A DNA stretch of 26,005 bases, taken from IMG/VR virus record IMGVR_UViG_2703718840_000008; one strand, 5' to 3'. Of the stretch, positions 2,856 through 24,952 are shown piece after piece (the stretch's first letter is position 1; every line of letters starts with the position of its first letter). Source of the DNA: a virus. Lineage: Duplodnaviria > Heunggongvirae > Uroviricota > Caudoviricetes. Under the pieces are notes generated by a model. That model had not been told where the DNA came from. It did no database searches and was given only the letters and a program-made list of their open reading frames with translations. A program made the position numbers and the translations under genes.

Positions 2856-3074
2856 TCAAAGAGAGAGCGCCACCTGTCCTGATTTCATTGGATGCGGCTG
2901 AACCGGATTTGACTCTTTTGGCGTTGCAATCGAACGAACAAAAGTTTCATGGGTAACAAAAGTATGGCTGCAGTTAATGTTCTGGCACTGGTTGTAACGC
3001 TCTTTGGTCAATGAAGATACCTGAAAACTGCTGCGAGTATGGGCGGCACTTCCACACAGTGGGCAAATCATCAT
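2856..3074 (-). CDS. ogr: Ogr/Delta-type zinc-finger late-gene transcription activator
   Basis: 72-aa product MMICPLCGSAAHTR...CQNINCSHTF with the Cys4 pattern CxxC...CxxxxC typical of P2 Ogr (72 aa); GGGGAGA RBS 9 nt upstream of the ATG at 3074. The 83-aa track ORF is an upstream extension. Confidence 0.88.
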   Translation of the reverse strand: MMICPLCGSAAHTRSSFQVSSLTKERYNQCQNINCSHTFVTHETFVRSIATPKESNPVQPHPMKSGQVALSL

Positions 3075-3164
3075 TTTTCGAGTTCTCCCCATTTTTGCTA
3101 AATTCACAATAATGATACCGCATTATTCCATTTTGCAAACTTAAAAGTTCTCCATTGCGAAGAA

Positions 3165-3878
3165 TCATTCCATTTCGAAATCATCAATCCTCACTTCAAG
3201 CTCCAGACTGGTCGTAAAACCATTATCCGGGCTTACGGTATGCGTCAGAGTCGTAATGGTCCATTCCGCATCATCTATCGGCTGTTTAAAGCCACTGACT
3301 TTCACTGGCATTTCCGTGTAGAGATCTGCCCGCCCTTCCGCCAGTTGTAACGAGAATGACGCAACGCCGCGTTGCAGGCGTTCCCACTGCATTTTCGCCG
3401 CTCGTTCGGCGTTGCTCCGGTTGGCATAAGTGCGATTAAGTACCAGCACGTTTTCATCCGTACCCACCAGGTAATCGCCCTGCTTCGCTTCCGGCTCTTT
3501 CTTCTGCTTCTTAGTCCTGCGCTTACGCTTCACCGTGGTGCTTTCTTTCTTCGCGGGTTCGCGGGTATGCAACCAGCTGGCAATTACGCCCGTGTAGGCT
3601 CCGCGATCTGCCAGGGTAAAGCGGTGACTGTCGCCGTCCTTACGTGTGATAGTGATAACCGGTAGTGGTTTACCGCTGGCGCTTTTACCCTGTCCCTGCC
3701 GGATGAATAACAGATTGCCATTTTTCACCGACGCAATAGCACCGTACTGGCGCGCCAGCCGCATCAGAAAACTGCCGTCACTCTCATTGGTCTGGTCTAT
3801 ATGCTCCACGGGTTTATCCGACAGGTCTTCACCCAATGCCATCTTCAGTTTGTGCCGCGCAGATATTTCCTTCACCAC
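3165..3878 (-). pseudogene. D: Tail protein D, C-terminal fragment (N-terminal ~150 aa missing)
   Basis: 237-aa ORF resembling the middle and C-terminal parts of P2 gpD (387 aa). The reading frame is closed by a stop at 3942-3944 and the track start at 3878 is a GTG; no gpU gene lies between it and the tape-measure ORF. Confidence 0.7.
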
Positions 3879-5836
3879 TTCCCCAACGGTGGTCTTGTGC
3901 CACGATTTTTCACGGCGGGTAGTTTTGCCTTTGCGGCCTCTTTACTGACAATGCCGAGTTTCTCCAGCAACCAGGAAACGCCGGATTTCAGGGAGTCCAG
4001 CGGATGCATGACCATATTCAGCCCTTCCGCCAGTGCCTCCCCGAATCGCCGCCCCATTGCCGCTGCACTCTGCAGTTCGGCAGAGGTCGACTTAACGGGC
4101 GTCAGCAGATCAGTAAACCAGCCCCACAGCGCCTGCACTTTGTCGCCAATCCACTGGAACACAGGCTTAAGCGGTTCGAACGCTGCACTGATGGGACCTG
4201 CCGCCGCTTTGAATCCTTCCACCACGCCACCAAGAAATGCGGTGATGGGTTGCCAGTATTTCCAGACAACCAGTGCCACACCCGCCAGTGCAGTAACCAC
4301 AAGACCTATCGGACTAAGCAGAGCACCTAACAGACCAGATACGGCATACAGGGCAACGCGCAACATCGCCAGCGGACCGGATGCCAGTACTCGCAGCACC
4401 GTGCCTGCGGCAGCCAGCCCGTCGCGTAGTGCTGCCAGTGGATTCATAAACATCACAGCAACCGCACGTAAACCGGATAATCCAGACCGCAACAGTGCAA
4501 CCGGCGCACCTGCTACAGTTTTCAGGACATTTCCCGTCAGTGATGCCGTGCGGCGCAAAGACGACAACGGAGCAGTAAGTAAGCCTGCGGCGTTGCCCGA
4601 TGAAGCAAGCCCGCGTCGCAGCACTGCCAGTGGAGCGCCAGCCAGCCAGGACAACGCGCTGCTGGTTCGTGTTACTGCTGCCGTAACGGAAGGTAACGTT
4701 TTGATGCCCAGCACAGAGAATCCCAGACGGATGACTGCCAGCGGCCCCAGCACTGCAGCCAGCGCCACAGCCAAGGTGCCGAGGCCTACGGTAACCGCAG
4801 CCACAACAGCCGCTACTTTCATCAGTGTGCCCGTCAGTTCCGGGTTAGCTTCGACCCAGCGACGCAACGCTCCCGTAACGCTTTTCACCGTGTACAGAAT
4901 ATCCATCAGCGGCTGGCGCAGCGTTTCGCCCAGGCTGCTGAAGGTATTCTGCGCTCCGGTTTTAACCAGCAACCACTGAGCAGAAAGTGAGTCCTTGTTG
5001 ATGTCGGATTCTTTCTGCATGGAACCGAGCGCATCATTGCCCGCTGTCAGTTTTAGCTGGCGCTGTAGTTCCGGCAGGTTGTTTGCCAGTTTCGCCGCGT
5101 CATCGCCAAACTCTTTACCAAACAACATGGTCATGGCAGACAGACGCTTGTCCTGCGGCAGTGCGTTCACCTTCTCCAGCACACGCTGGATAGTTCCCAT
5201 CGCATCCTTCGTCATCTGCTTTTCAATCACTTCAGGATTGAGTTTCAGCAGATTCATCCCTTCAAAGAAACTCTTGCTTTGCATGGTGGCAATGGACAAT
5301 TCACGCACCATCGCGTTTGCTGCACTGGCTGCAACCTCCGGCGCAGCGCCCAGTGTCAGAAAGGTGGAACCCAGCGCCGCCGCTTTACGATAATCCAGAC
5401 GATCAGCCACACCGCCCAGGCGTTGCATGACATCAATGATGTCTGCCCCTTTCGACAACCACTGACGGTAAGCTGTACCTCCGGTGAGTGCCGGACGTTC
5501 CCGCAGCCGGGTAATGTCAGCAGGCAAAGGAGTATCAGCCCAGCGGCGTAAATCCTCGTTCTCACGTTTCAGTTCCTCGATCCGGTGTTGTCGTTGTCTC
5601 AGCAGTGCGCTGGTCTGTTCTGCTTCGGCATAGAGCCGCGCCTGCTCCCGGTTATTGGTTTCAGTCAGAATGGACAGACCGATCAGCTGGCTGTTTTTCT
5701 TCGTCAGTTCCTGCGCTTTACTTTTCAGCGCCGCGCGCTGCGTTTCGATGGTGTGGCTGGCGCTGTTAAGCCGCCACGACTGCCAGCCCAGCGCAACGAG
5801 TGCCAGCGCCACCACTACTGCCAGCGCACGCGTCAT
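3872..5836 (-). pseudogene. Chimeric ORF: Rz/LysB-like i-spanin N-terminus fused in frame to the C-terminal part of tail tape-measure protein gpT
   Basis: First ~130 aa have a TM helix, coiled coil and the ENEDLRRWADTPLP motif typical of Rz/LysB spanins; the rest is Ala/Gly/Leu-rich repeat sequence typical of tape-measure proteins. Start overlaps the endolysin stop (ATGA). Sheath, tube, baseplate and fibre genes expected between lysB and T are absent. Confidence 0.7.
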
Positions 5837-10012: not shown

Positions 10013-11779
10013 ATGAACACCACACTGACACCCGCAGATCTCGATCCCCGTCGGCAGGCCATGCTGCTGTACTTTCAGGGATACCGCGTAGCCCGCATTG
10101 CTGAAATGCTGGGCGAGAAAGTTGCAACCGTTCACAGCTGGAAAAAACGCGACAAGTGGGGTGACTATGGGCCGCTGGACCAGATGCAGCTCACCACCGC
10201 CGCACGCTACTGCCAGCTCATCATGAAGGAGCACAAAGAAGGGAAAGATTTCAAAGAGATTGACCTGCTGGCGCGCCAGTCTGAGCGCCACGCGCGGATC
10301 GGCAAGTTTAACAATGGCGGCAACGAAGCCGACTTAAACCCTAACGTCGCCAACCGCAATAAAGGCCCACGCCGTCAGCCGGAAAAGAATGTTTTCACCG
10401 ATGAGCAGATTGAGAAGCTGGAAGAAATCTTCCATTCCTCCATGTTCAACTACCAGCGCCACTGGTGGGAAGCCGGAAAAACCAACCGCATCCGCAACCT
10501 GCTGAAGTCTCGCCAGATCGGCGCGACCTTCTATTTTGCCCGTGAAGCCCTGATTGACGCCCTGCTTACCGGACGCAACCAGATTTTCCTTTCTGCCAGT
10601 AAGGCTCAGGCCCACGTCTTTAAACAATACATCATCGACTTCGCCAAAGAAGTGGAGGTGGAGCTGAAAGGCGATCCGATGGTGCTTCCTAACGGGGCCA
10701 CGCTTTACTTCCTCGGCACCAATGCCCGCACGGCCCAGAGTTACCACGGCAACCTGTATCTGGATGAATATTTCTGGATACCGAAATTCCAGGAGCTGCG
10801 CAAAGTGGCTTCCGGTATGGCTATTCACAAAAAATGGCGACAAACCTATTTTTCCACGCCATCCAGCCTGACACACAGTGCTTATCCGTTCTGGTCCGGT
10901 GCGCTGTTCAACCGTGGGCGCAACAAAGCTGACAAGGTGGACATCGACCTGTCCCACAGCAATCTGGCCCCCGGCCTGCTGTGCGCAGACGGGCAATACC
11001 GCCAGATAGTCACCGTGGAAGATGCGGTGCGCGGCGGCTGTAACCTGTTCGACCTCGACCAGTTGCGCATGGAGTACAGCCCGGACGAATACCAGAACCT
11101 GCTGATGTGTGAGTTCGTGGACGATCTCGCGTCCGTGTTCCCGCTCAGCGAGCTGCAGGCGTGCATGGTGGACAGTTGGGAAGTCTGGACCGACTTTCAT
11201 GCACTGGCGCTGCGCCCGTTTGGCTGGCGCGAAGTGTGGATCGGTTATGACCCGGCAAAAGGTACGCAGAACGGCGACAGTGCCGGATGCGTGGTGGTGG
11301 CTCCGCCAGCCGTGCCGGGTGGTAAGTTCCGCATTCTTGAGCGTCACCAGTGGCGCGGGATGGACTTCCGCGCCCAGGCTGACGCCATCAAAAAACTCAC
11401 CGAACAGTACAACGTTACGTATATCGGTATCGACTCGACCGGCGTTGGTCACGGGGTTTATGAGAACGTGAAAGCGTTCTTTCCTGCCGTCCGGGAGTTT
11501 GTCTATAACCCCAATGTTAAAAATGCCTTGGTACTCAAGGCCTACGACATTATCAGCCACCGCCGTCTGGAGTTTGACGCCGGACACACTGACATTGCGC
11601 AGTCATTCATGGCAATCCGTCGCGCAACCACCGCCAGCGGCAACCGCCCGACCTATGAAGCCAGCCGCAGCGAAGAAGCCAGCCACGCCGATCTGGCCTG
11701 GGCAACAATGCACGCACTGTTTAACGAACCGCTGCAGGGCGAATCCGCCAATACCAGCAATATTGTGGAGATTTTTTGA
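10013..11779 (+). CDS. P: Terminase large (ATPase) subunit gpP
   Basis: 588-aa ORF; length and position match P2 gpP (about 590 aa); stop overlaps the Q start (TGATG). Confidence 0.9.
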   Translation: MNTTLTPADLDPRRQAMLLYFQGYRVARIAEMLGEKVATVHSWKKRDKWGDYGPLDQMQLTTAARYCQLIMKEHKEGKDFKEIDLLARQSERHARIGKFNNGGNEADLNPNVANRNKGPRRQPEKNVFTDEQIEKLEEIFHSSMFNYQRHWWEAGKTNRIRNLLKSRQIGATFYFAREALIDALLTGRNQIFLSASKAQAHVFKQYIIDFAKEVEVELKGDPMVLPNGATLYFLGTNARTAQSYHGNLYLDEYFWIPKFQELRKVASGMAIHKKWRQTYFSTPSSLTHSAYPFWSGALFNRGRNKADKVDIDLSHSNLAPGLLCADGQYRQIVTVEDAVRGGCNLFDLDQLRMEYSPDEYQNLLMCEFVDDLASVFPLSELQACMVDSWEVWTDFHALALRPFGWREVWIGYDPAKGTQNGDSAGCVVVAPPAVPGGKFRILERHQWRGMDFRAQADAIKKLTEQYNVTYIGIDSTGVGHGVYENVKAFFPAVREFVYNPNVKNALVLKAYDIISHRRLEFDAGHTDIAQSFMAIRRATTASGNRPTYEASRSEEASHADLAWATMHALFNEPLQGESANTSNIVEIF

Positions 11780-12807
11780 TGGGTAAGAGTGAGAAGAACC
11801 GCGCTGCGGCGACGAAACAGATCCAGCTTAAAAGCCAGACTACAGCCGAAGCATTCAGCTTCGGCGATCCCGTTCCTGTTCTGGACCGCCGAGAACTGCT
11901 GGACTATGTGGAATGCGTACAGATGGACCGTTGGTATGAGCCGCCCGTCAGCTTTGACGGACTGGCGCGCACCTTCCGCGCTGCCGTGCATCACAGTTCC
12001 CCGATTGCAGTAAAGTGCAACATTCTGACCAGTACCTATATCCCTCATCCGCTGCTCAGCCAGCAGGCTTTTTCGCGTTTTGTGCAGGACTATCTGGTAT
12101 TTGGTAACGCCTACCTGGAGAAACGCACGAACCGATTCGGTGAAGTTATCGCCCTTGAGCCTGCGCTGGCAAAATACACCCGACGCGGGTTAGACCTGGA
12201 TACCTACTGGTTTGTGCAATACGGTATGACAACCCAGCCGTATCAGTTCACGAAAGGCAGCATTTTTCATCTGATGGAACCGGACATCAACCAGGAGATC
12301 TACGGCCTGCCCGGTTATCTTTCTGCCATTCCGTCAGCCCTGCTCAACGAGTCCGCCACGCTGTTCCGCCGCAAGTATTACATTAACGGTAGCCATGCAG
12401 GCTTCATCATGTATATGACCGATGCCGCGCAGAACCAGGAAGATGTGAACAACCTCCGCAACGCAATGAAAAGCGCCAAAGGCCCTGGCAACTTCCGCAA
12501 TCTGTTTATGTACTCGCCTAACGGCAAAAAGGACGGACTTCAGATCATCCCGTTGTCAGAAGTCGCAGCGAAAGATGAATTTCTTAACATCAAGAACGTG
12601 AGTCGTGATGACATGATGGCCGCGCATCGTGTTCCGCCACAGATGATGGGGATTATGCCGAATAATGTTGGGGGTTTTGGGGATGTGGAGAAGGCTAGTA
12701 AGGTTTTTGTGATAAATGAATTAATTCCTTTGCAAAAACGATTTATGGAAATAAACGCATGGCTCGGGGAGAAACTTATAGAATTTTCTCCATATGAGCT
12801 TAACTAA
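11779..12807 (+). CDS. Q: Portal protein gpQ
   Basis: 342-aa product from the ATG at 11779 (track ORF begins at a TTG 3 nt upstream); matches P2 gpQ in size (about 344 aa) and position. The last ~40 codons are markedly AT-rich. Confidence 0.88.
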   Translation: MGKSEKNRAAATKQIQLKSQTTAEAFSFGDPVPVLDRRELLDYVECVQMDRWYEPPVSFDGLARTFRAAVHHSSPIAVKCNILTSTYIPHPLLSQQAFSRFVQDYLVFGNAYLEKRTNRFGEVIALEPALAKYTRRGLDLDTYWFVQYGMTTQPYQFTKGSIFHLMEPDINQEIYGLPGYLSAIPSALLNESATLFRRKYYINGSHAGFIMYMTDAAQNQEDVNNLRNAMKSAKGPGNFRNLFMYSPNGKKDGLQIIPLSEVAAKDEFLNIKNVSRDDMMAAHRVPPQMMGIMPNNVGGFGDVEKASKVFVINELIPLQKRFMEINAWLGEKLIEFSPYELN

Positions 12808-12815
12808 AATATTAG

Positions 12816-12845
12816 TTGCCAGTACCGTATTGTTGCTACTGGCAA
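12816..12845. terminator. Hairpin between convergent Q and the RloC-like gene (possible bidirectional terminator)
   Basis: 9-bp inverted repeat ttgccagta (12816-12824) / tactggcaa (12837-12845) with 12-nt loop; no strong T-run, so weak. Confidence 0.3.
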
Positions 12846-12856
12846 TTGCAATAAAA

Positions 12857-15193
12857 TTACAAATATGTATTGCTATGTAGAGATGTGTTTATTCCATCTT
12901 CTATCTCAATTTTTGACGAAGCATACTCATCATTCGCACTATCATCAATATCAAACTCATCTTGTAGATGAAGTGACTCATTTAACGGTTTATAAAACTC
13001 ACCCATCATCATTTTGTAATGGGCAGTATGCTCACTACACTCAAATATCTTCTGAAAAACAATTAAATATTTTTGCACAGACTCCGTATCTAAATTCATA
13101 TAAAGATCATCACCTGCAAAATGAGAACCATCATTAATCCATGACACTAAAGATTTAAATATGATTTTTTCATCACCATAAAAATGACACTCAAGCTTCC
13201 TAATATCCATCCCTCCTAATATCTTAAAGTAATTCTCCAAAATCCTTCGCATTGTATTTTGTATAGTATTATTATTAATATCTGTTCTTCTCAATTCGCA
13301 CCAGAGCAAATCATAAGACGTTTTTATTGGGTTTGATTCGCACTTTTCAAGATATGAGACCTTCCCTTTTTTCCTTACAATCCAAAAAGTCTCCTCTTTC
13401 ATTGCTTGATTACCGGATCTTTTAGTATTAAAAGTCAACTCTTTATGAAAATAAATATTATGCGTAAGGAATATAATTTGCTTAATATTTCCTTCATCCT
13501 TACGAACATCCTCCATTAAATCTTTAATCAACGAACTTACAATAAACAGAATATCACTATCTAAACTTGAAATTGGATCATCAAATACTACAACACGATC
13601 ATCTAAAACACCTGATGCATTATCACTCCCTCTAACAAGACTATAAAAATACAAAAAAGTGATAAATGTCTTTTCTCCCTCGCTAAGAGTTGTACGAGCA
13701 TTATCTCCACTATCTCTCACTATCATATAATGCTTTTTATCTTCGGAGGGTTTTAAGTAAAAATTTTTGAAGCCATAAGAATCCAGAATCTTGTTAATTT
13801 TTGTAATAGTTGGAAGAGTACTGGTTTTATTAGACTCAATTGCCTCAATAGCCGAAGCATTTAACATTAACTTCTTTTTGTCTTCCTCTAACCCAGATTT
13901 AAGTCCTTGTAACCTCCTACTAAATTTATCAGATTCGCTACGGTAAGAAGTTATTTCAGACTTTAACTCCACCTTTACGATATATGCCCATATCTGATTA
14001 GAAAGATTACTAACCTCTACCTTTCTATTACTGTGTATTTTGTTATTATTATCTATCAATAGATTTGAATCATTCAAAAAAGAAATAAAATCATCAACAA
14101 CTTCACTTAAGTCACTAAAATGAACTGATTCACTTAAAAAATTGCGTTTGTTTTTTGCTAATTCAAAATTCTTGTTTAATTCAGATAATACTATCTTAGC
14201 CTTATCCTCAAATACTTCATAATTTATGAATGGAGATTTAATCGCCCTTATATCATCTATCGCCTGCAAGATATTATTAAGTTGATGTTCATATTGTAAA
14301 ACCAATGCATCGATTTCTCTTTTTTTTAACTCATATGTTTTATCAAAATATGATGATAGATTATCAAATATATTATCATTTACATCCTGCTGGCAGAATG
14401 GGCACTTGGGATTAGATTTACTGAAATATGTTAAACCTTCCTTAACCCAATCACTGTTATTGAGCATTGTAATTAAGTCTGAAACACTAACGTCTTTTTT
14501 CCCTAGAATACGCTCACTCCAAATCTCCCTACTCAAAATATCATCTATCCCATTGAAGGATGGAATTGTAATTGATACATGTGATGTCAATTCAGTAGAA
14601 AAAACAATTTTTGCTTTCTCAATTAGCTCTGCTATTGAGCAAACTTCTGATGTGTTATTTTCATACTCAGCCAACACTCTAGCTTTAAATTTTTCACTAC
14701 TATTCCTTAATCCCTCAAAAGCCTTTGAGAACACATTATCATGTTTTATTTTTTGCTTCCAACATGAATCTTTAAAAGATTTTTCATGGTCTTCGATTTG
14801 TTTAACAACGCCTAATATATTATCACCACCATCTATTAGCTTTTCCTTTGCTATAATAGATTCTATTAGCTTATTTTTTTCTTCTTCAAGAGATATTAGT
14901 TTCTCTTCATCCTCCTTAAGATCGCTACCAAGGGTAAATACACCTTTAATTTTATCTTGACTAAAATTTCTTTCAACAAAATCTTTATTATATACGTAGC
15001 TTATTAAAGATATATTATTTTTCCATTTAATCGGACATGTTGGATATTGTTCAGGGTCATTAATAATTTTACTTATAGTTGTTTTACCTGCACCATTAGC
15101 TCCATATAAATAGTTAAATTTAGAAAGCCCATGTAAAAGCTGAGTAGGGCCATTATATGAGCCTACTTTGTCAATAACTACCTCTTCAATCAT
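12857..15193 (-). CDS. RloC/PrrC-like ABC-type ATPase (AAA_13-like) with Rad50-type CxxC zinc hook; candidate anticodon nuclease / abortive-infection protein
   Basis: 778-aa ORF, ~30% GC. N-terminal Walker A GANGAGKTT; long predicted coiled-coil region containing CPFC; ABC signature-like LSEGEK; Walker B VVVFDDPISSLD; H-loop-like FLTHN; C-terminal ~200 aa with an RRILE (R-x3-E) motif and downstream His residues, reminiscent of the PrrC/RloC nuclease triad. GAGGA RBS upstream. Confidence 0.6.
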   Translation of the reverse strand: MIEEVVIDKVGSYNGPTQLLHGLSKFNYLYGANGAGKTTISKIINDPEQYPTCPIKWKNNISLISYVYNKDFVERNFSQDKIKGVFTLGSDLKEDEEKLISLEEEKNKLIESIIAKEKLIDGGDNILGVVKQIEDHEKSFKDSCWKQKIKHDNVFSKAFEGLRNSSEKFKARVLAEYENNTSEVCSIAELIEKAKIVFSTELTSHVSITIPSFNGIDDILSREIWSERILGKKDVSVSDLITMLNNSDWVKEGLTYFSKSNPKCPFCQQDVNDNIFDNLSSYFDKTYELKKREIDALVLQYEHQLNNILQAIDDIRAIKSPFINYEVFEDKAKIVLSELNKNFELAKNKRNFLSESVHFSDLSEVVDDFISFLNDSNLLIDNNNKIHSNRKVEVSNLSNQIWAYIVKVELKSEITSYRSESDKFSRRLQGLKSGLEEDKKKLMLNASAIEAIESNKTSTLPTITKINKILDSYGFKNFYLKPSEDKKHYMIVRDSGDNARTTLSEGEKTFITFLYFYSLVRGSDNASGVLDDRVVVFDDPISSLDSDILFIVSSLIKDLMEDVRKDEGNIKQIIFLTHNIYFHKELTFNTKRSGNQAMKEETFWIVRKKGKVSYLEKCESNPIKTSYDLLWCELRRTDINNNTIQNTMRRILENYFKILGGMDIRKLECHFYGDEKIIFKSLVSWINDGSHFAGDDLYMNLDTESVQKYLIVFQKIFECSEHTAHYKMMMGEFYKPLNESLHLQDEFDIDDSANDEYASSKIEIEDGINTSLHSNTYL

Positions 15194-15326
15194 CCTCTAA
15201 TCCTCAAAAAACAGATTAATCCTATCAAATCAATGATAATAGAAGACATTACTTACCTAATTACAAGGTGATCATTTATACAGCTGTGAATAAATCAGGC
15301 TAATCATCTATTTGTCATAACGCGCG

Positions 15327-15345
15327 CTCGTATCCCCGCCACGCC
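15327..15345. other. Candidate cos site (cohesive-end sequence) of the P2/186-like phage
   Basis: Reverse complement reads GGCGTGGCGGGGATACGAG followed by CGCGCG, matching the conserved GGCG(A/T)GGCGGGGA start of the P2 and 186 cohesive ends as I recall them; lies in a GC-normal island between two AT-rich cargo cassettes, oriented toward Q. Confidence 0.5.
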
Positions 15346-15897
15346 TGCCCGCTTTATGCAGTGATTTTCATGCACCTGCATGACATAAGCGAAAGCCCGC
15401 CAGTTCTGGGGGGCCTCAGCAAAAACGATCCTCAAACGATCATGCAATTTCATGCAGCATAGTCATGCACAGCCAAGAGAAGTGAAAATCCGTATCTGAA
15501 TGACCACTTAAAAAACGAAATATACGGGTTTACAAACATGGAGGTTCACTGTGAGCGAAGAGCGGAAGTTGCCTTAATTAGGTTACATGGGGGACAAATG
15601 TTACTAGCATGATTATGCGGGATACTTACAATACCACGCCTTAATTGCTTTGTTATCCCACCAGAAAGTCATGGAGCCGCAACTGATAAGAAAATTGTTG
15701 TAAAAGTGCCAGTTGGTTACTCTGAATTTCTGCTTAGCCAGGAGAGTGCCTGCGTTGTCAGCGAATGCGTAAGTTGATCCTTCAATGCAGAAATAGTTCA
15801 ATTTATTAAACAACACTCCTGGCGGGATTAACGCCGCATCTATAATGCGTGAGAGTGTGCATGCGCAATTTCAGCAAAAAAATTGAAAATAGCGCTA

Positions 15898-16869
15898 CTA
15901 ACTTCCCTTTATTTTTAGTTCGTTAAAAATATCTTCGATTACCAATCCATTTTTAATTAAATGCTGCACAATATTTTCATATTCTTTGAAATTGTCAATA
16001 TGCAAGCCATGATCTTTTTCTTTAGCAATTCTCGTGATCACATGTACGCTATCTATATAATCAATCTTATTTTTAAGAGCATTGAGCAAACTTATACTTG
16101 GATTTAAAGTTGAGATTAGTTTACCAAACTCGGTTTGTAACTCTTTGGATTGATGAGTATTAATATAATCTTCAATAAAAGCATCAAAATCTCCTTGCAA
16201 CTCAACTTTAAGGTTTGCTATATCCTTCATAATATTTTCTAACTCAGAAGAGTATGGCCGACCATGTTTAAAATCGAATAAAAAAAGATTTGCTTTCTCA
16301 ATACATTCGCAAATATAAAAAACTGTATAAAGGGAATATTTTTGCTTAACTTTTAATTTTCCATAGGCGTAGTGAACCAAAAGATGCTTAGCATTAATAA
16401 CATTTTTATTTTTTGAAAGTTGATTGTTAGTTGCAGGCGGATAAATTACCACATCAACATTATCTAAATTTTGAAAAGTTTTTAAAATAAGAGCCTCAAC
16501 CTTATTCCAATCGAGGCCCCCATTACCACAGCCTAAAGGTGGTATTGATATTGATGTAATTTTTTTTTCATCTATAATTTTTGCTAAAGATTCAAGGCCT
16601 TGCGAGATAAAATCATATGTTGATTTTTTTCTCCAACTATCTTTAGTGGGAAAGTTTACAATTATTTTTCCCTTTTCCTCTACAATTAAAACCTGTCCAA
16701 TTTTCATTGTACCAGTGGCGCATGCTCTCTTATAAACTTCGAAATTATAGGGAAAAGTTTCTTTAAAAGCCAAAGCAATACCCTTTCCCATGACTCCTTG
16801 GCAGTTTACAGCATTCACAAGAGCTTGCGATGTAGAGTTTAGAAGATTTCCGCTTGCATACTTAATCAT
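15898..16869 (-). CDS. darG: DarG-like antitoxin (N-terminal macrodomain, ADP-ribosyl hydrolase)
   Basis: 323-aa ORF; N-terminal ~150 aa show macrodomain hallmarks (GNLL, ALVNAVNC, GVMGKGIALAF, IPPLGCGNGGL); starts 4 nt after the darT stop, giving the toxin-then-antitoxin operon order. Confidence 0.75.
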   Translation of the reverse strand: MIKYASGNLLNSTSQALVNAVNCQGVMGKGIALAFKETFPYNFEVYKRACATGTMKIGQVLIVEEKGKIIVNFPTKDSWRKKSTYDFISQGLESLAKIIDEKKITSISIPPLGCGNGGLDWNKVEALILKTFQNLDNVDVVIYPPATNNQLSKNKNVINAKHLLVHYAYGKLKVKQKYSLYTVFYICECIEKANLFLFDFKHGRPYSSELENIMKDIANLKVELQGDFDAFIEDYINTHQSKELQTEFGKLISTLNPSISLLNALKNKIDYIDSVHVITRIAKEKDHGLHIDNFKEYENIVQHLIKNGLVIEDIFNELKIKGS

Positions 16870-16873
16870 AGAA

Positions 16874-17455
16874 TTAGAACATATAAGTGTTGATCGTTAT
16901 CAATATACTTAATCCTTGTTGTTTTATCAACCCTTCAACATATTTTTTTTCGTTATCATTTTTGACAAAGATGCAATGGAAATTTTTCGGCTCGACCGTT
17001 ACACTTGATAAACACTCAGCCATACATACAGATTTGCATTCTGCATTTTTATAATCCCTTATATTCATTAGCTCCCAGTCAATTTGGGCCATTCCTTGTT
17101 CATAATCTAAGAGGTCTATAACAGAACTGGTGGATAATGGATGTTTAGGTATAACTTTCCAACCATTTTCTTTGGCAAATGCCCGACAAACCGAAATAAT
17201 ACAAAATGATTTTTCCTTATGATCTTTCAGGACTCTTCCATCAAATGGATTCTTAGTAAAGAAATGAAAAGGAACCATTGTTTGCAAATTTAATGCTTCG
17301 CGACCTGTTATTATTTCACCGTCGGCCACATCAACAAACTCACCTTTTACTGATGCACGAGATCTTAATCCTGTGTCTAAAATACTAGGTAGATTATCCA
17401 TACATGTTAAATGATAGAGAAGATACTGATCTTCAATTCTTTTCCTTTCGCTCAT
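16874..17455 (-). CDS. darT: DarT-like toxin (DUF4433 ssDNA ADP-ribosyltransferase)
   Basis: 193-aa ORF with YLLYHLTCMDNLPSIL N-terminal motif, MVPFHFF, and a glutamate in CMAECL, matching the DarT family pattern as I recall it; AGGA-type RBS upstream. Confidence 0.72.
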   Translation of the reverse strand: MSERKRIEDQYLLYHLTCMDNLPSILDTGLRSRASVKGEFVDVADGEIITGREALNLQTMVPFHFFTKNPFDGRVLKDHKEKSFCIISVCRAFAKENGWKVIPKHPLSTSSVIDLLDYEQGMAQIDWELMNIRDYKNAECKSVCMAECLSSVTVEPKNFHCIFVKNDNEKKYVEGLIKQQGLSILITINTYMF

Positions 17456-17922
17456 TTCAACTCATCCTTTCAAATTCGTAAGTCTATTTATAGAACCAAA
17501 CCTCACTGACAGTCAAGGTTTTTAAGATTATTCACATTGCCTTCTGCCTGTCGATCTAATTATTTTCGATTTTTTGGGTATGATTTGGCATTATTGATAT
17601 ACAAGGTAAAACAATTTTTCAGTAGTTTACTGACGCTGAGTGATTACGATTGCTAGCTTGGGAAGGCAATGGCCATAGTGCATGTGCTGAACAAAATGAA
17701 AAAGGCAGGGACATTCTGGTCTTCCCCATGAGTATGGATTTTCATTGCATCGATGGGTATGAGCAACGTCCCCTTGATTAAGGATAGCGTTGCATCGTCC
17801 CGTTGAACTCACAACACAAATCGTACAATCACTTATCAAAATGGCCGCCCACCTTACGCCTCGTTTCACTCGCTACCCAAACTAGCCCCCATCAGAATGA
17901 ATCCTCCTGGGGGCAACGTTTC

Positions 17923-18156
17923 TTAATGCAGCCAGCTGTCGTCTTCCCACACCTTCTGCATAATTTTCATCACTTGTTTTCTTTCTTCATCCAGTTGCAG
18001 TCCGGTCAGTTCCACACCGTTAGAGCTACCTTTACGGATACGAATTACCGTTTTGGGATATAGGGGGCGCAGATTGCGGTAAAGCTCGGATTCAAGGGCG
18101 TCCAGGGTAGACTGGCTAATCTTCTGCTCTTTATCGATCATTATTTCAATGCGCAT
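17923..18156 (-). CDS. DinI-like protein (equivalent to the C-terminal domain of 186 antirepressor Tum)
   Basis: 77-aa product from the ATG at 18156 (MRIEIMIDKEQKIS...ESELYRNL...KIMQKVWEDDSW) resembling DinI; GAGGTG RBS overlaps the stop of the upstream ORF. The 101-aa track ORF is an upstream extension. Confidence 0.7.
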   Translation of the reverse strand: MRIEIMIDKEQKISQSTLDALESELYRNLRPLYPKTVIRIRKGSSNGVELTGLQLDEERKQVMKIMQKVWEDDSWLH

Positions 18157-18166
18157 AAAAGTCACC

Positions 18167-18355
18167 TCAACTGATGACATCCATTGAGCGGTTGTATTCG
18201 TGGGTTCTGATTTTTGCCATGAGTTCATCTGTCAGTTCAGAAACCCACTGCAGGGCCAGCCCCTTCTCTTCATCACTACACTCACTAGCCGCTACAAGCT
18301 TAAGAAAAAAATCAATGCGCTGGAGCTTCAAAGACTCCAAAAAATAGTCCTGCAT
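18167..18355 (-). CDS. Small protein, possible N-terminal part of a Tum-like antirepressor (SOS-controlled)
   Basis: 62-aa ORF from the ATG at 18355 preceded by AGGAGG; translationally coupled to the dinI-like ORF; a LexA box lies 45-60 bp upstream. Confidence 0.5.
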   Translation of the reverse strand: MQDYFLESLKLQRIDFFLKLVAASECSDEEKGLALQWVSELTDELMAKIRTHEYNRSMDVIS

Positions 18356-18398
18356 TTTTCCTCCTATGACACCACAAGCAATACTGTAAATATAACCA

Positions 18399-18414
18399 CT
18401 GTTTATATTTACAG
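18399..18414. promoter_or_regulatory. LexA (SOS) box upstream of the tum-like operon
   Basis: cACTGTttatatttACAGta matches the CTGT-N8-ACAG consensus with flanking A/T; a second half-site-like CTGT lies at 18384-18387. Confidence 0.7.
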
Positions 18415-18508
18415 TATATAATAATCTTACTGATGTAAAACGTTTTTTTACGTTCATCAGCCTGATATGCCTGGTATTATTAAGAGCACGAATTGTTAAC
18501 CCGCGTAA

Positions 18509-20923
18509 TTAATACAGGTTTCGCCACTTATCATCTTCCTGCAAACGCTGGTTCCGATAGAAGATACGCAGGCCTGCTCCTGACGGAATACTGCCGCCGC
18601 GAAGGAGTAAATCGACCTCTTTCTCGCTGCCATCAAATCCTCTGGACTTCAGTTCATAGACGAGCTGCTGTCGTTGATGGTCTGTAATTCGCTGTTTGTA
18701 GTCTCTACGCCGTTTCGGCTTCACCAGGCGTAACCTTGCTGCCAGTTCCCGGCGCTCTTTTTTGCTCATACTGTGCAGGTAATCGTGCAACTCCTTGTCA
18801 TCCATGCGGGTAATGTCCGTTCTGGTGTCCCCATCAGCTGATTTGTCTTTCCCTTGTTGGTTCAAATTTTCAGCAAGGGGATAGTTATTGCCACGAGTCC
18901 AAGGGGCGCAAGCGCCCTGTTCGGCTGCCGCCTCCTGAACGTCAACGGCCTTACGAACCATTTTCCACTTCACTGCATGAGTGCAGATCTTGCCCTCTGC
19001 AATGGGTGACCAGATGCCATAAATACGAATACCGTGATCGCCATAGGCGGTCGGCTCTTCGTTAATTTCATAAGCTGTTCTGATAAGGTGATATTTGCGG
19101 GGAACCAGCACGCCGCCCTGCTTCATGATGTAGGTCGCAAAACAGCCAGCATCAGCAGCAGCCAGGATGGCATCAAGGCGTGGGTTATCCAGTACCGGCG
19201 CACCTGCTTTTATGTCACCCTGCTGCCTTGCCGCCTGACCAGCCAGCAATCGCAGTTCACGATAAGCCTGACGCCCCGGAATACCAAAGAAGCGGAATTG
19301 CTGAACACGATGCAGAGACGCCCAGGCATTCACGTATTCAGCGTTATCACGCAGGGATTTACCCGTTTCCTTGCTGATCTCGCCAGCCAGACCACGCCCG
19401 TCAATGTTCTTACTGATATATTTCGCGATGTAGCTTGTCGGCGTTCCTTTGCGCGGGTTAATCAACTCAGACTTAAAGCGCGGCCCCGTGTTATTGCCCA
19501 GCTCCTCGCGGTCTTCACGGATGGCAAACTTACGCAGTAATGCAGTGATGGCGCGGCGGTCTTTTTTGCGCATAAAACACAACAGGTGCCAGTGAACTGT
19601 ACCGTCATGATGTGGCTCAGCCACCCGCACGCCATACCACCGCAATCCGGCTTTGTGCATCGCCTTACGAAATGCAGCAAACATGCCGACCAGATAATCA
19701 CTGCTTTGTCTTACCGTCGCATTTGTCCAGGTCGGGTTGGGCCTGCCGTTATTTAGCGTGGAATGGAAACGTGACGGACAGGTGATGGTGTAGAAAACGG
19801 CGCAGTCACCGCGCATTTCCGCGATAAGCTCCAGGCCTTTAACACAGGCCATCATCTCATTGCGGCGATGCGCAGGGTTGCTGCTGCTGGCGTTTACCAC
19901 ATCCTCCATGTCCAGCGTGTCGCCGTCTTCGTTCACCAGTTCATGAGAACGAAAAAACTCCAGCGACTTACGGCGCTGCTCACGTTTATGCATCACGGCT
20001 TCATAGCTGACATAGGGAGATGCTTTTTTGCTGACCAGGCAGACAGCACGCAACTGCTCTTCCCGCCATTCGCAACGCATCTTCCATAATTTCCGGTACC
20101 ACCAGTCAGCGCACAACATACGCGCCAGCGAACCCGGAATGAGTTCATAGGGCACGGGTTTACGGCGGTTTCTTTTCCGGCGGAGTTGCTCAAACGCAGG
20201 CGGTATGACATCCAGTCGCAGGGTTTCTGCTGCCACCTTTTCCCATGTCTTGCGGATTTCTTCAGGCTTAACGTCATCGGTGGCATACAAATCGCCACAA
20301 GCTGCATCAAGGCACATGCTCATATGCGCAGCAACAAGGGTGGACAGGCGTTTCACCTGATCCTGACTCATTTCAGGCAGAATCAGCAGGCCGTCCAGCC
20401 CTTCATGGCTTGCCATAAAGCGAAAAGAAGTGGATAGCTGACTGTCGCGTACATGCTCCAGCCGTTCCAGACATGGCTTAATCGTCTCACGCAAATAGCG
20501 GGAATAAGCCTTTGGCCTGCCAAGGCTGCTGAAGTATTCAATACGTTGCATCAGCGGCTTGCTGATATGGGAAGGCTGGGCATTGACGTCCGCCAGAATG
20601 ACCATATCTGGATTAAAACGCTGCTGCTCATGCGCCAGCTTTGCCCGACTAATGAGCTTATCCTGCTCCATTTCGCGCTGGACAGGATCACGGGATTCAT
20701 TAAAGAAATAACGCTCCCAGACCTGATCACTCAGTGCCTCGCGGCGCAGCTGTTCCTGCTCGTTATCGGCAGCGTACAGAGTGATCAGGTTTGAAAGCGC
20801 AGAAACCGGCGCAACTTCCGCCGGGTCCAGATAAGGGTTAATGGCCTTTTTCGGGCTGTTCCATGAGAACGATGCGGCAGCCTCGTTAAAGCCGCAGCAG
20901 TTGTTCATATCGGCATGGCTCAT
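18509..20923 (-). CDS. A: Replication initiation protein gpA (rolling-circle initiator)
   Basis: 804-aa ORF at the position and scale of P2 gene A (761 aa), downstream of dam and the early genes; start overlaps the dam stop (ATGA). Confidence 0.85.
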
Positions 20924-23574: not shown

Positions 23575-23638
23575 GGTTTTCAACTCCGAACTTATCGCAA
23601 AATCGAACTCAGCGTCTTATTGCGAAAATAGACGTCTA

Positions 23639-23842
23639 TTAAGCAGACAAAGCATCAACAGTCAGAGCAGCCAGGTTAATCATTACCTTTTCACGTTTTT
23701 TGTCTTTACGAAGACGATGACGAGGTAGTCGGCCATCAGCCAACATGTCGTTAATCGTATCAATAGAAAGGCCAGTCAGTTCGCTATAACGTTCGATTGT
23801 GACATGTGGTGTATTCAGAGTAATTGAAATGTTAGGTGTCAT
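23639..23842 (-). CDS. Apl/Cox-type excisionase-regulator (HTH)
   Basis: 67-aa basic ORF with HTH-like segment ([22 protein letters not shown]), first gene of the early operon, divergent from cI; AAGGAA RBS. Confidence 0.6.
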
Positions 23843-23987
23843 AAGGCAACATTCCTTCTAGATATGGCTTGTGGCGAGCCGTTGTTTGTCGTGATTAGTA
23901 GTGAAGGCTCCAAAAGAACACTTCTGGTTCAACTTTAAGATCGCTTTTGGAATCTGTCAACGAATTTTGGATTTCTTTGGAGGACTT

Positions 23988-24557
23988 GTGGATTTCAATA
24001 GCGGCGGTAAGAAAGCCATAGAACGTTTAGTTGAAGCATATGGGTTCGGTACTCGTCAGGCTCTCTGTGATCATTTAGGTGTTTCTAAGAGCACCATGGC
24101 AACGCGCTATATGCGTGATATTTTTCCAGCAGATTGGGTAATCCAGTGCGCCCTTGAAACGGGCACCTCGCTTAATTGGCTAACAACAGGGCATGGTTCA
24201 AAGCAAGCATCAGCAAATACAAATACTATAGAAGTAGAAAAATATTTATTGTCTGATGGAGCATTGCAGAAAGACGGTTTTTATATTTTTGATAAGGGAT
24301 TTCTACCCTCTACGTTTAAAAAACCTTTTGTCATCACAGATAACAATTCTGAATTTATTTGTGATAAAGAATTTGATGATATACGTGATGGTAAATGGGT
24401 AATAAGTATTGATGGCGAAATAACGATCCGTGACATTACTCGTTTACCCGGTGGAAGAATCTTCGTCGAGGGTGGAAACAGAGCCTTCGAATGCAAGATA
24501 GAAGACATTGAAATAATTGGTAAAATTATAAGTTTAACAGTCAAGTATGTTAAATAG
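23988..24557 (+). CDS. cI: 186 CI-type immunity repressor
   Basis: Product of about 190 aa, divergent from apl, with N-terminal HTH-like region (LVEAYGF...ALETGTSLNWLTTG). The start is uncertain: the track ORF begins at a GTG at 23901, while a GTG at 23988 follows a GGAGGA motif. Confidence 0.7.
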   Translation: MDFNSGGKKAIERLVEAYGFGTRQALCDHLGVSKSTMATRYMRDIFPADWVIQCALETGTSLNWLTTGHGSKQASANTNTIEVEKYLLSDGALQKDGFYIFDKGFLPSTFKKPFVITDNNSEFICDKEFDDIRDGKWVISIDGEITIRDITRLPGGRIFVEGGNRAFECKIEDIEIIGKIISLTVKYVK

Positions 24558-24572
24558 TACCGGGAGGAAACT

Positions 24573-24764
24573 ATGCTTGGTAAGGTATTTTTTGTGGTTT
24601 TGTCATGTTCTTTGTTATTAAACCCACTAACTACCTATGCTAGAAATTATCCCTGCTCAGGGAAAAAGGGAGGTGTTTCTCACTGTACCTCAGATGGCAA
24701 ATTCGTTTGCAATGATGGAACTATTAGTAAATCCAAAAAAATCTGTACTAAAAACTCACGATAA
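24573..24764 (+). CDS. Small predicted secreted Cys-rich protein (moron-like)
   Basis: 63-aa ORF with strong RBS (GGAGG), N-terminal signal-peptide-like segment ([23 protein letters not shown]) and four Cys in the ~40-aa mature part; AT-rich; sits between cI and int. Confidence 0.5.
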
Positions 24765-24952
24765 TTTTTGTTTTTATATCTGCGTCTAAAATAAAAATGA
24801 GCCGCAGGTTAACCGCAAAAGTTACATGCTCACATAGCAAAAAGAATAGCCAACTTCATTATGGCTTCAGTGAGATGTATGGTCGTAGGATTTCATACAT
24901 TGACACTGGTTATACATACAGTAAAAATGCTCTCTACTGGAGGGCATTTTTT

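Follow-up and report, generated by a model that had tools for sequence, protein, structure and literature searches.

The stretch analyzed here, the 26,005-nucleotide IMG/VR record IMGVR_UViG_2703718840_000008 (Caudoviricetes), hereafter called the window, corresponds to an E. coli prophage of the 186/P2-like type that is defective, and this work concerns the region between its portal gene Q and its replication gene A. Two AT-rich blocks of cargo are found here on either side of a conserved cos packaging site (Table 1). The slot on the portal side is occupied by a single gene for a 778-aa RloC-like ATPase (RefSeq WP_061357951), while the slot on the side of the replication genes carries a darT-darG toxin-antitoxin pair along with remnants of two insertion sequences (IS). 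The initial annotation had described the region from 12700 to 17600 as a low-GC island with two independent cargo cassettes, which were separated by a GC-normal, cos-containing segment of approximately 0.6 kb.

GC content was computed in 400-bp windows and expressed as z relative to the mean of the phage backbone (0.547, sd 0.044). The block at 12.85–14.9 kb had a GC content of 0.305 (z = −5.4) and the block at 15.9–17.1 kb one of 0.322 (z = −5.1). At third codon positions (GC3), the three cargo genes reached only 0.25, 0.24, and 0.28 compared to 0.58–0.70 in the head, terminase, and replication genes, so that the two AT-rich blocks within a GC-normal backbone were clearly recovered. The limits of the region, in contrast, had to be corrected. 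Alignments to relatives placed the start of the left-hand block at the end of the portal gene (approximately 12771–12808) and the end of the right-hand block at 17912 instead of 17600. The GC-normal segment with cos does exist, but backbone-like GC is limited to about 150 bp (15321–15470, GC 0.547) rather than 0.6 kb, and the adjoining DNA at 15471–15897 (GC 0.415) is linked to the cassette.

The gene in the portal-side slot has a 127-bp upstream region that abuts cos, and a hairpin with a 9-bp stem (approximately 12816–12845), read from the sequence, lies between the convergent Q and cargo genes. The product of the cargo gene matched the Pfam family AAA_13 over the full length (E = 1.6e−163) and the PADLOC class PDC-S06 (E = 8e−266), with weaker PADLOC matches to PrrC (E = 4e−11), LmuB, and AriA. 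The ABC ATPase motifs are present as Walker A (GANGAGKT, residues 31–38), signature (LSEGE, 503–507), Walker B (VVVFDD, 534–539), and the linchpin H578, and are accompanied by a zinc-hook motif (CPFC, 264–267) and a C-proximal triad, R649-x3-E653-x37-S690-H691. The ABC, CPFC, and triad residues were invariant in an alignment of 30 homologues with 41–66% identity, and several homologues carry the JGI name "wobble nucleotide-excising tRNase". A sequence search of solved structures with this ATPase returned no relatives, and a predicted model was used instead. In the AlphaFold (AF2) model (mean pLDDT 78.6), the ATPase head is split by long helices (93–455), whose apex at the CxxC motif, where zinc binding is predicted, was modelled with low confidence, and the C-terminal domain is all-helical. 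The best fold matches were Rad50, SMC heads, Lamassu LmuB, and PARIS AriA.

RloC has been defined by ABC ATPase motifs and a C-proximal Arg-x3-Glu-x36–52-His, often with a Ser before the His (PMC2610378). The ABC motifs, a coiled-coil insert with CxxC that splits the head in a Rad50-like manner, and the Arg/Glu/His triad are all present in the window protein, which, judged by these motifs, bears every sequence hallmark of this anticodon nuclease. The wobble-nucleotide-excising RloC of Geobacillus kaustophilus (PMC2610378) has the same ABC motifs, the same CxxC hook in a long helical insert, and the same C-terminal triad. Unlike that enzyme, the window protein is borne by a prophage and encoded beside cos, and it is likened to RloC by the motif definition, with its activity being predicted.

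In the second slot, darT ends 4 nt before the start codon of darG. DarT scored 78 bits against a Pfam cut-off of 22.5 and matched DarT in PADLOC (E = 2e−36). It could be aligned to the Thermosipho DarTG structure 7omu, with E147 located in a MAECL motif where the crystallised chain reads MAACL, a mutated position. DarG matched its PADLOC model (E = 9.8e−81) as well as the DarG macrodomains in the PDB entries 5m3i (E = 2.7e−43) and 5m31 (E = 3.3e−37), and the lysine of the FPTK motif (K76) is kept. A macrodomain antitoxin, as opposed to NADAR, defines the subfamily DarTG2, which modifies thymidine (PMC11543638). With a DarT that retains the catalytic Glu and, directly downstream of darT, a macrodomain DarG that retains the catalytic Lys, the pair is of the macrodomain type, DarTG2, as far as domains and motifs can tell. 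Gene order and both catalytic residues agree with the DarTG2 systems of Thermus, Mycobacterium, and E. coli, although the window pair is divergent from them and has a weak likeness to DarT1 of E. coli C7 (E = 0.048).

Between both slots lies the cos core. Its 19-nt cohesive end, the reverse complement of 15327–15345, reads GGCGTGGCGGGGATACGAG, can be aligned to the cohesive end annotated for P2, and shares the first 13 of its 19 bases with that of 186, which substantiates the proposed cos-like sequence between the blocks. Of 5426 complete E. coli genomes, 1270 contain a match to the core, and these matches begin and end sharply at 15321 and approximately 15470. Across 66 loci of many genera, the conserved block extended from −14 to +137 around cos, leaving a conserved flank of about 7 bp on the portal side compared to about 125 bp on the replication-gene side before conservation stopped abruptly. 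Variable DNA therefore starts where the packaging signal ends. About 100 bp directly beside the core (15471–15570) are common to only a subset of E. coli prophages (among them those of A12, E2348/69, and the B strains), and a comparison of this stretch with the t95b terminator of 186 gave no match. A 49-aa open reading frame (ORF) inside the core (15304–15453) is annotated as "hypothetical protein" in some RefSeq genomes but is probably not a gene.

Table 1. Features of the cos-proximal cargo region and its surroundings (positions refer to the window; a dot marks a feature without assigned strand).
Feature	Position	Strand	Basis or remarks
ogr, P2/186-like prophage gene	2856–3107		
Terminase gene P	10013–11779		
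Portal gene (P2 Q/186 W homologue), left conserved flank	11776–12807	+	Pfam Phage_portal
Portal-side cargo slot	12808–15320	−	GC 0.306; limits from alignments to L003, L084, and L085 and from the 66-locus conservation profile
RloC-like AAA_13 ATPase/putative anticodon nuclease, 778 aa (WP_061357951)	12857–15193	−	
cos core, conserved	15321–15470	−	GC 0.547; P2 cos alignment, 186 cos annotation
Replication-side cargo slot	15471–17912	−	GC 0.355; limits from alignments to L084 and L085
IS5-family (IS903-like) 5′ end remnant, approximately 200 bp, between darG and cos	15600–15815	−	Extent estimated from ORF 15613–15816
darG, predicted antitoxin, 323 aa, with N-terminal macrodomain (ADP-ribosyl-DNA glycohydrolase) and C-terminal domain	15898–16869	−	Pfam Macro
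darT, predicted toxin (ssDNA ADP-ribosyltransferase), 193 aa	16874–17455	−	Pfam DarT, E = 9e−22
IS30-family (ISCfr4-like) left end with 5′ leader, 69 bp, between darT and tum-like gene	17759–17827	.	megablast
DinI-like gene, counterpart of 186 tum, right conserved flank	17923–18228	−	Pfam DinI
Replication endonuclease gene A (P2 gpA homologue), outer right flank	18509–20923	−	Pfam Phage_GPA, E = 1.4e−127

The independence of the two cassettes is evident from related prophages. The order is Q, RloC-like gene, cos, KAP NTPase gene, and tum in L083; Q, cos, the IS5′ remnant, darG, darT, and tum in L084; and Q, RloC-like gene, cos, and tum in L085, where the cos core is joined directly to window position 17913. 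L084 is 99.8% identical to the window from cos through gpA (15321–19000), but its portal gene only 81%. Alignments to such relatives yielded breakpoints at the edges of the cos core, namely at 15320/15321 and 15470/15471 (or 15558), and a further one at 17912/17913. Among the 5426 complete E. coli genomes, the RloC-like gene was found without DarTG in at least 19 records and DarTG without the RloC-like gene in at least eight, while both were present in only two, evidently records of one strain. Co-inheritance of the cassettes as a rule is thus contradicted by L083, L084, and L085, and the alternative that the AT-rich blocks are conserved core genes is contradicted by the varying cargo of relatives. 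On the left side, homology ends within the portal gene, at 12710 against a relative with different cargo and at 12770 against a cargo-free relative, and the last 25 or so residues of the portal protein (region 12710–12807) co-vary with the adjoining cassette. Since these C-terminal tails differ by cargo type, the left junction lies inside the 3′ end of Q.

Beyond these prophages, a tblastn search of 80 species-level P2-like loci gave no homologues of the three cargo proteins, and in megablast searches of phage and plasmid collections with either cassette only the cos core and the 69-bp IS30 fragment were matched. A search for direct or inverted repeats on either side of each cassette, which would indicate site-specific insertion or target-site duplication, gave only short chance matches.

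The initial annotation had implied that cargo on both sides of cos was a departure from the usual arrangement, which did not hold. In P2 and 186 themselves, the portal side is empty, with about 170 bp from cos to the portal gene. However, Q, cos, and A could all be located in 52 loci from different species, and in 44 of these Q is separated from cos by over 500 bp of low-GC DNA. The median distance from Q to cos was 1.7 kb (63 loci with Q and cos placed), and 21 of the 52 loci had cargo on both sides according to length thresholds. All five E. coli prophages sampled down the match list (L088–L092) had annotated genes on both sides, with DprA, a TIR protein, an OLD-like nuclease, and two hypothetical proteins on the portal side and, among others, a KAP-type NTPase, an ASCH protein, and a DUF4145 protein on the replication side. 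Cargo on both sides of cos is therefore the norm and not unusual. The portal-side cargo of the species-level loci included PADLOC matches to PD-T4-9, bSEFIR, AbiL, AriA, PtuA, and Old, among others, and the replication-side cargo matches to PD-Lambda-5 and methyltransferases. On the portal side, 81 of 84 cargo ORFs (loci L003–L065) were opposite in strand to the portal gene and thus pointed away from cos, converging with the late P-Q operon, as is also the case in the window. The orientation of replication-side cargo was mixed in the sampled loci.

With the conserved flanks Q and A, the adjoining cos, a content that varies among relatives, and the gene order of P2 and 186, the locus was correctly placed in the variable cargo region of P2-like phages. 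The checks suggested with that annotation were informative as well: alignment to other P2/186-like prophages revealed conserved flanks with alternative cargo (L083–L085 and L088–L092), and PADLOC returned matches for all three cargo genes, with anti-phage families enriched on both sides of cos in relatives. This region is well known. Rousset et al. (2022, PMC9122126) described the gpA-gpQ region beside cos as a defence hotspot with 1,650 arrangements in 18,150 E. coli loci and demonstrated experimentally that it holds active anti-phage systems; their Table S5 lists WP_061357951, DarT+Macro arrangements, and an "RloC-like" AAA_13 system. A survey from 2026 reported rapid swapping at the hotspot and left the underlying recombination process unresolved (PMC13586616). 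The window thus shares its position, its AT-rich variable cargo, and even the same ATPase with this P2-like "tin-old" (TO) hotspot, and its defence families are already catalogued, which makes it a real but ordinary and already described feature. What differs is that both surveys take the whole interval as one arrangement, whereas the locus in the window consists of two independently assorting slots, and that the combination of RloC-like ATPase and DarTG is rare (2 of 5426 genomes, one strain).

The individual slots have precedents, too. In PMC5694545, the position from cosL to the portal gene Q is cited as a known pick-up site for foreign genes, with reference to Nakayama et al., and the slot between cos and portal is attributed to Dodd and Egan 1996. 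In this cos-to-terminator slot of 186-related prophages (retrons Ec67 and Ec86), acquired DNA reportedly takes the place of the short stretch from cos to the end of the portal gene, exactly where the RloC-like gene resides here. The cargo of the window differs from theirs in being an RloC-like ATPase, and a search of 12–19 kb against Rfam (E ≤ 0.1) gave no match, so that neither a retron nor another known RNA is present in this interval. On the other side of cos, DarTG takes the place of orf97 of phage 186, downstream of the LexA-controlled tum and transcribed toward cos, and the old and tin genes of P2 are found on the same side of cos. However, orf97, tin, and old are unrelated to darTG, P2 old is transcribed away from cos, and the slot of the window additionally contains the IS remnants.

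The prophage extends from approximately 2.8 kb to the right end of the window and is preceded by host genes for glutaredoxin, ybjM, and a ybjL-type permease. Behind ogr follow a truncated gpD, a tape-measure fragment, lysis and head genes, terminase P, and portal Q, while a Dam methylase, CII/CI-type regulators, and an integrase are encoded to the right of gene A. The closest complete genome, E. coli 2018-11-3CC, harbors a near-identical prophage with approximately 11.2 kb of tail genes that are absent from the window, for which reason the prophage is considered defective. The 3′ part of the tape-measure gene (3918–5457) is fused to the lysB/lysC region to form a chimeric ORF of 654 aa (3872–5836), gpD is cut to 237 aa, and gpU is apparently absent from the window. 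Between 5454 and approximately 17950, both prophages differ at three positions. Beyond approximately 17950, they diverge by 2–4% through the early region and far more at approximately 23.5–23.9 kb, the immunity region, which places a mosaic junction at approximately 17913–17950. Identity of the window with the prophage of 2018-11-3CC was considered and ruled out by the deletion of the tail genes and the diverged early region. Another AT-rich stretch at 23600–24800 (GC 0.34–0.41) comprises the CI repressor gene (GC3 0.32) and the DNA up to the integrase; it corresponds to the immunity region, described elsewhere as a minor site of variation or defence in P2-like phages.

The DinI-like gene on the right flank corresponds in position to tum of 186 with its p95 promoter and LexA site. 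A perfect match to the LexA-box consensus CTGTTTATATTTACAG was found at 18399–18414, upstream of a small ORF and the tum-like gene, in agreement with the p95/LexA arrangement of 186. The darTG pair lies downstream of tum in the same orientation, and a simple scan detected no terminator between them. As the LexA box heads the tum operon, an SOS-linked expression of darTG is possible, and the dose of DarTG may rise during the SOS response via read-through from this operon. A design in which replication-side cargo is generally co-oriented with tum as part of an SOS operon was also considered and rejected because of the mixed orientations in the sampled loci.

Altogether, we interpret the region as a cos-proximal accessory hotspot of a P2/186-like prophage, in which two cargo slots beside a 150-bp packaging site hold an RloC-like module and a DarTG2 pair that were acquired horizontally and are reshuffled among relatives via the flanks (probability of roughly 0.9). 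Both cassettes would have originated from AT-rich donors, and related prophages would exchange them by recombination in the conserved flanks, for which the 3′ end of Q, tum/A, and the cos core itself would serve. The RloC-like module is predicted to combine a Rad50-like ABC ATPase with zinc hook and a PrrC-type anticodon nuclease. By analogy to characterized systems, its Rad50-like sensor, triggered by infection or DNA damage, would induce cleavage of tRNA in the anticodon loop and thereby stop translation. DarT, once released from the control of DarG, would ADP-ribosylate thymidines in the single-stranded DNA of an invader and block phage DNA replication, while the macrodomain of DarG would strip off the ADP-ribose mark and neutralise DarT in uninfected cells. 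A defence role for the lysogen is likewise suggested by family membership and the validated hotspot. While composition, gene identities with their motifs, slot limits, and independent assortment were observed directly, the biochemical activities, a function against phages, and the route of recombination are inferred.

Several observations weigh against parts of this interpretation. The prophage is defective, and its own virions therefore cannot currently spread the cargo. The IS remnants hint at a first arrival of DarTG by transposition or IS rearrangement rather than homologous exchange. DarT and DarG stayed below the NCBIfam equivalog cut-offs (53 vs 150 bits and 230.9 vs 250 bits, respectively) and are therefore regarded as divergent members, of DarTG2 type by domain and motif but not strict equivalogs. 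PDC-S06 is only a candidate class in PADLOC, and the activities of both cargo alleles are predictions. Finally, a scan for promoters and terminators gave counts equal to the shuffled expectation, which leaves the expression of the cargo predicted but unproven; Shine-Dalgarno-like sequences and the hairpin between Q and the cargo gene, both read by eye, are the only expression signals that can be claimed.

As an alternative, the whole stretch from 12.8 to 17.9 kb could represent one island that was acquired in a single event and contains the cos-like sequence by chance. The two blocks are indeed very alike in GC and GC3, and the whole block is near-identical to the window in strain 2018-11-3CC. 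However, other E. coli prophages have one cassette without the other, their breakpoints coincide with the cos-core edges, and the 150-bp core has the GC content of the backbone and is kept in 1270 E. coli genomes and across genera. The replacement cargo (KAP NTPase) and the diverged backbones of L083–L085 speak against an origin of these loci by secondary deletions from an ancestor with two cassettes. A single island is hardly conceivable under these circumstances, and L083, L084, and L085 refute it in practice. For DarTG alone, delivery into the replication-side slot by IS elements, either in the manner of a composite transposon or by IS rearrangement, has to be weighed against homologous cassette exchange. 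An IS5/IS903-like fragment lies between darG and cos and the left end of an ISCfr4-like element between darT and tum. The former is covered by a RefSeq pseudo-coding sequence ("IS5/IS1182 family transposase, incomplete", 15634–15741), has a weak NCBIfam IS5 match (E = 0.007), and accompanies DarTG in the eight further E. coli genomes listed with DarTG. The latter matched more than 100 plasmids by megablast, and on many plasmids from Klebsiella and Pantoea the match precedes the transposase gene; in plasmid pBM374-1, the 69-bp match is directly followed by the start codon of the ISCfr4 transposase. However, neither of these short fragments includes a transposase, and the outer end of the IS5-like remnant, which is cut off on the cos side, faces inward to darG, which is not the geometry of a composite transposon. 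Two IS fragments without intact copies and without flanking direct repeats do not amount to such a transposon, and transposable elements were nearly absent from P2-like hotspots in the 2026 survey (PMC13586616). The present spread proceeds via conserved phage flanks, as the near-identity to L084 from cos through gpA illustrates. The remnants still point to an illegitimate or IS-mediated event behind the first entry of DarTG, whereas IS delivery in place of homologous cassette exchange is, in our view, unlikely.

With regards to function, the main task of the cargo could be stabilisation of the prophage remnant or regulation of the host rather than anti-phage defence, with DarTG acting in addiction or growth control and the RloC-like protein as a DNA-damage responder. 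DarTG, a genuine toxin-antitoxin system, also has a part in the control of replication and growth (PMC11543638), and a response of RloC to DNA damage has been proposed (PMC2610378, PMC3874168). In addition, both modules remain intact in a defective prophage, and the operon upstream of darTG is preceded by a LexA box. On the other hand, relatives carry a wide range of validated or candidate defence families in the same slots, active anti-phage systems were shown experimentally in the hotspot (PMC9122126), and roles in the host and in defence are not mutually exclusive. A predominant host role is rated unlikely, and the reading as a reshuffled defence hotspot is preferred.

By itself, the window adds little, being one more case of a catalogued hotspot with two catalogued defence families. 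Mildly useful additions are the resolution of two slots with limits at base level and a speculative link between cargo position and genome ends. The locus provides a clean example that the gpA-gpQ "hotspot" consists of two independently assorting slots, which are bounded within about 7 bp by a functional cos core. Counting whole-interval "arrangements" consequently inflates diversity and may mistake adjoining independent systems for multi-gene systems, while the sharp limits and the IS scars offer modest hints on the entry and movement of cassettes. It is conceivable, although improbable, that both slots owe their location to being the two physical ends of the packaged linear genome, and that an incoming or induced phage with ends resected into Q or tum/A is repaired by copying a resident relative. 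If this were true, each end-proximal cassette could be swapped independently without a crossover inside the 150-bp cos core, and end repair would be the so far unexplained "recombination process" behind the rapid turnover of defence systems in P2 and P4.

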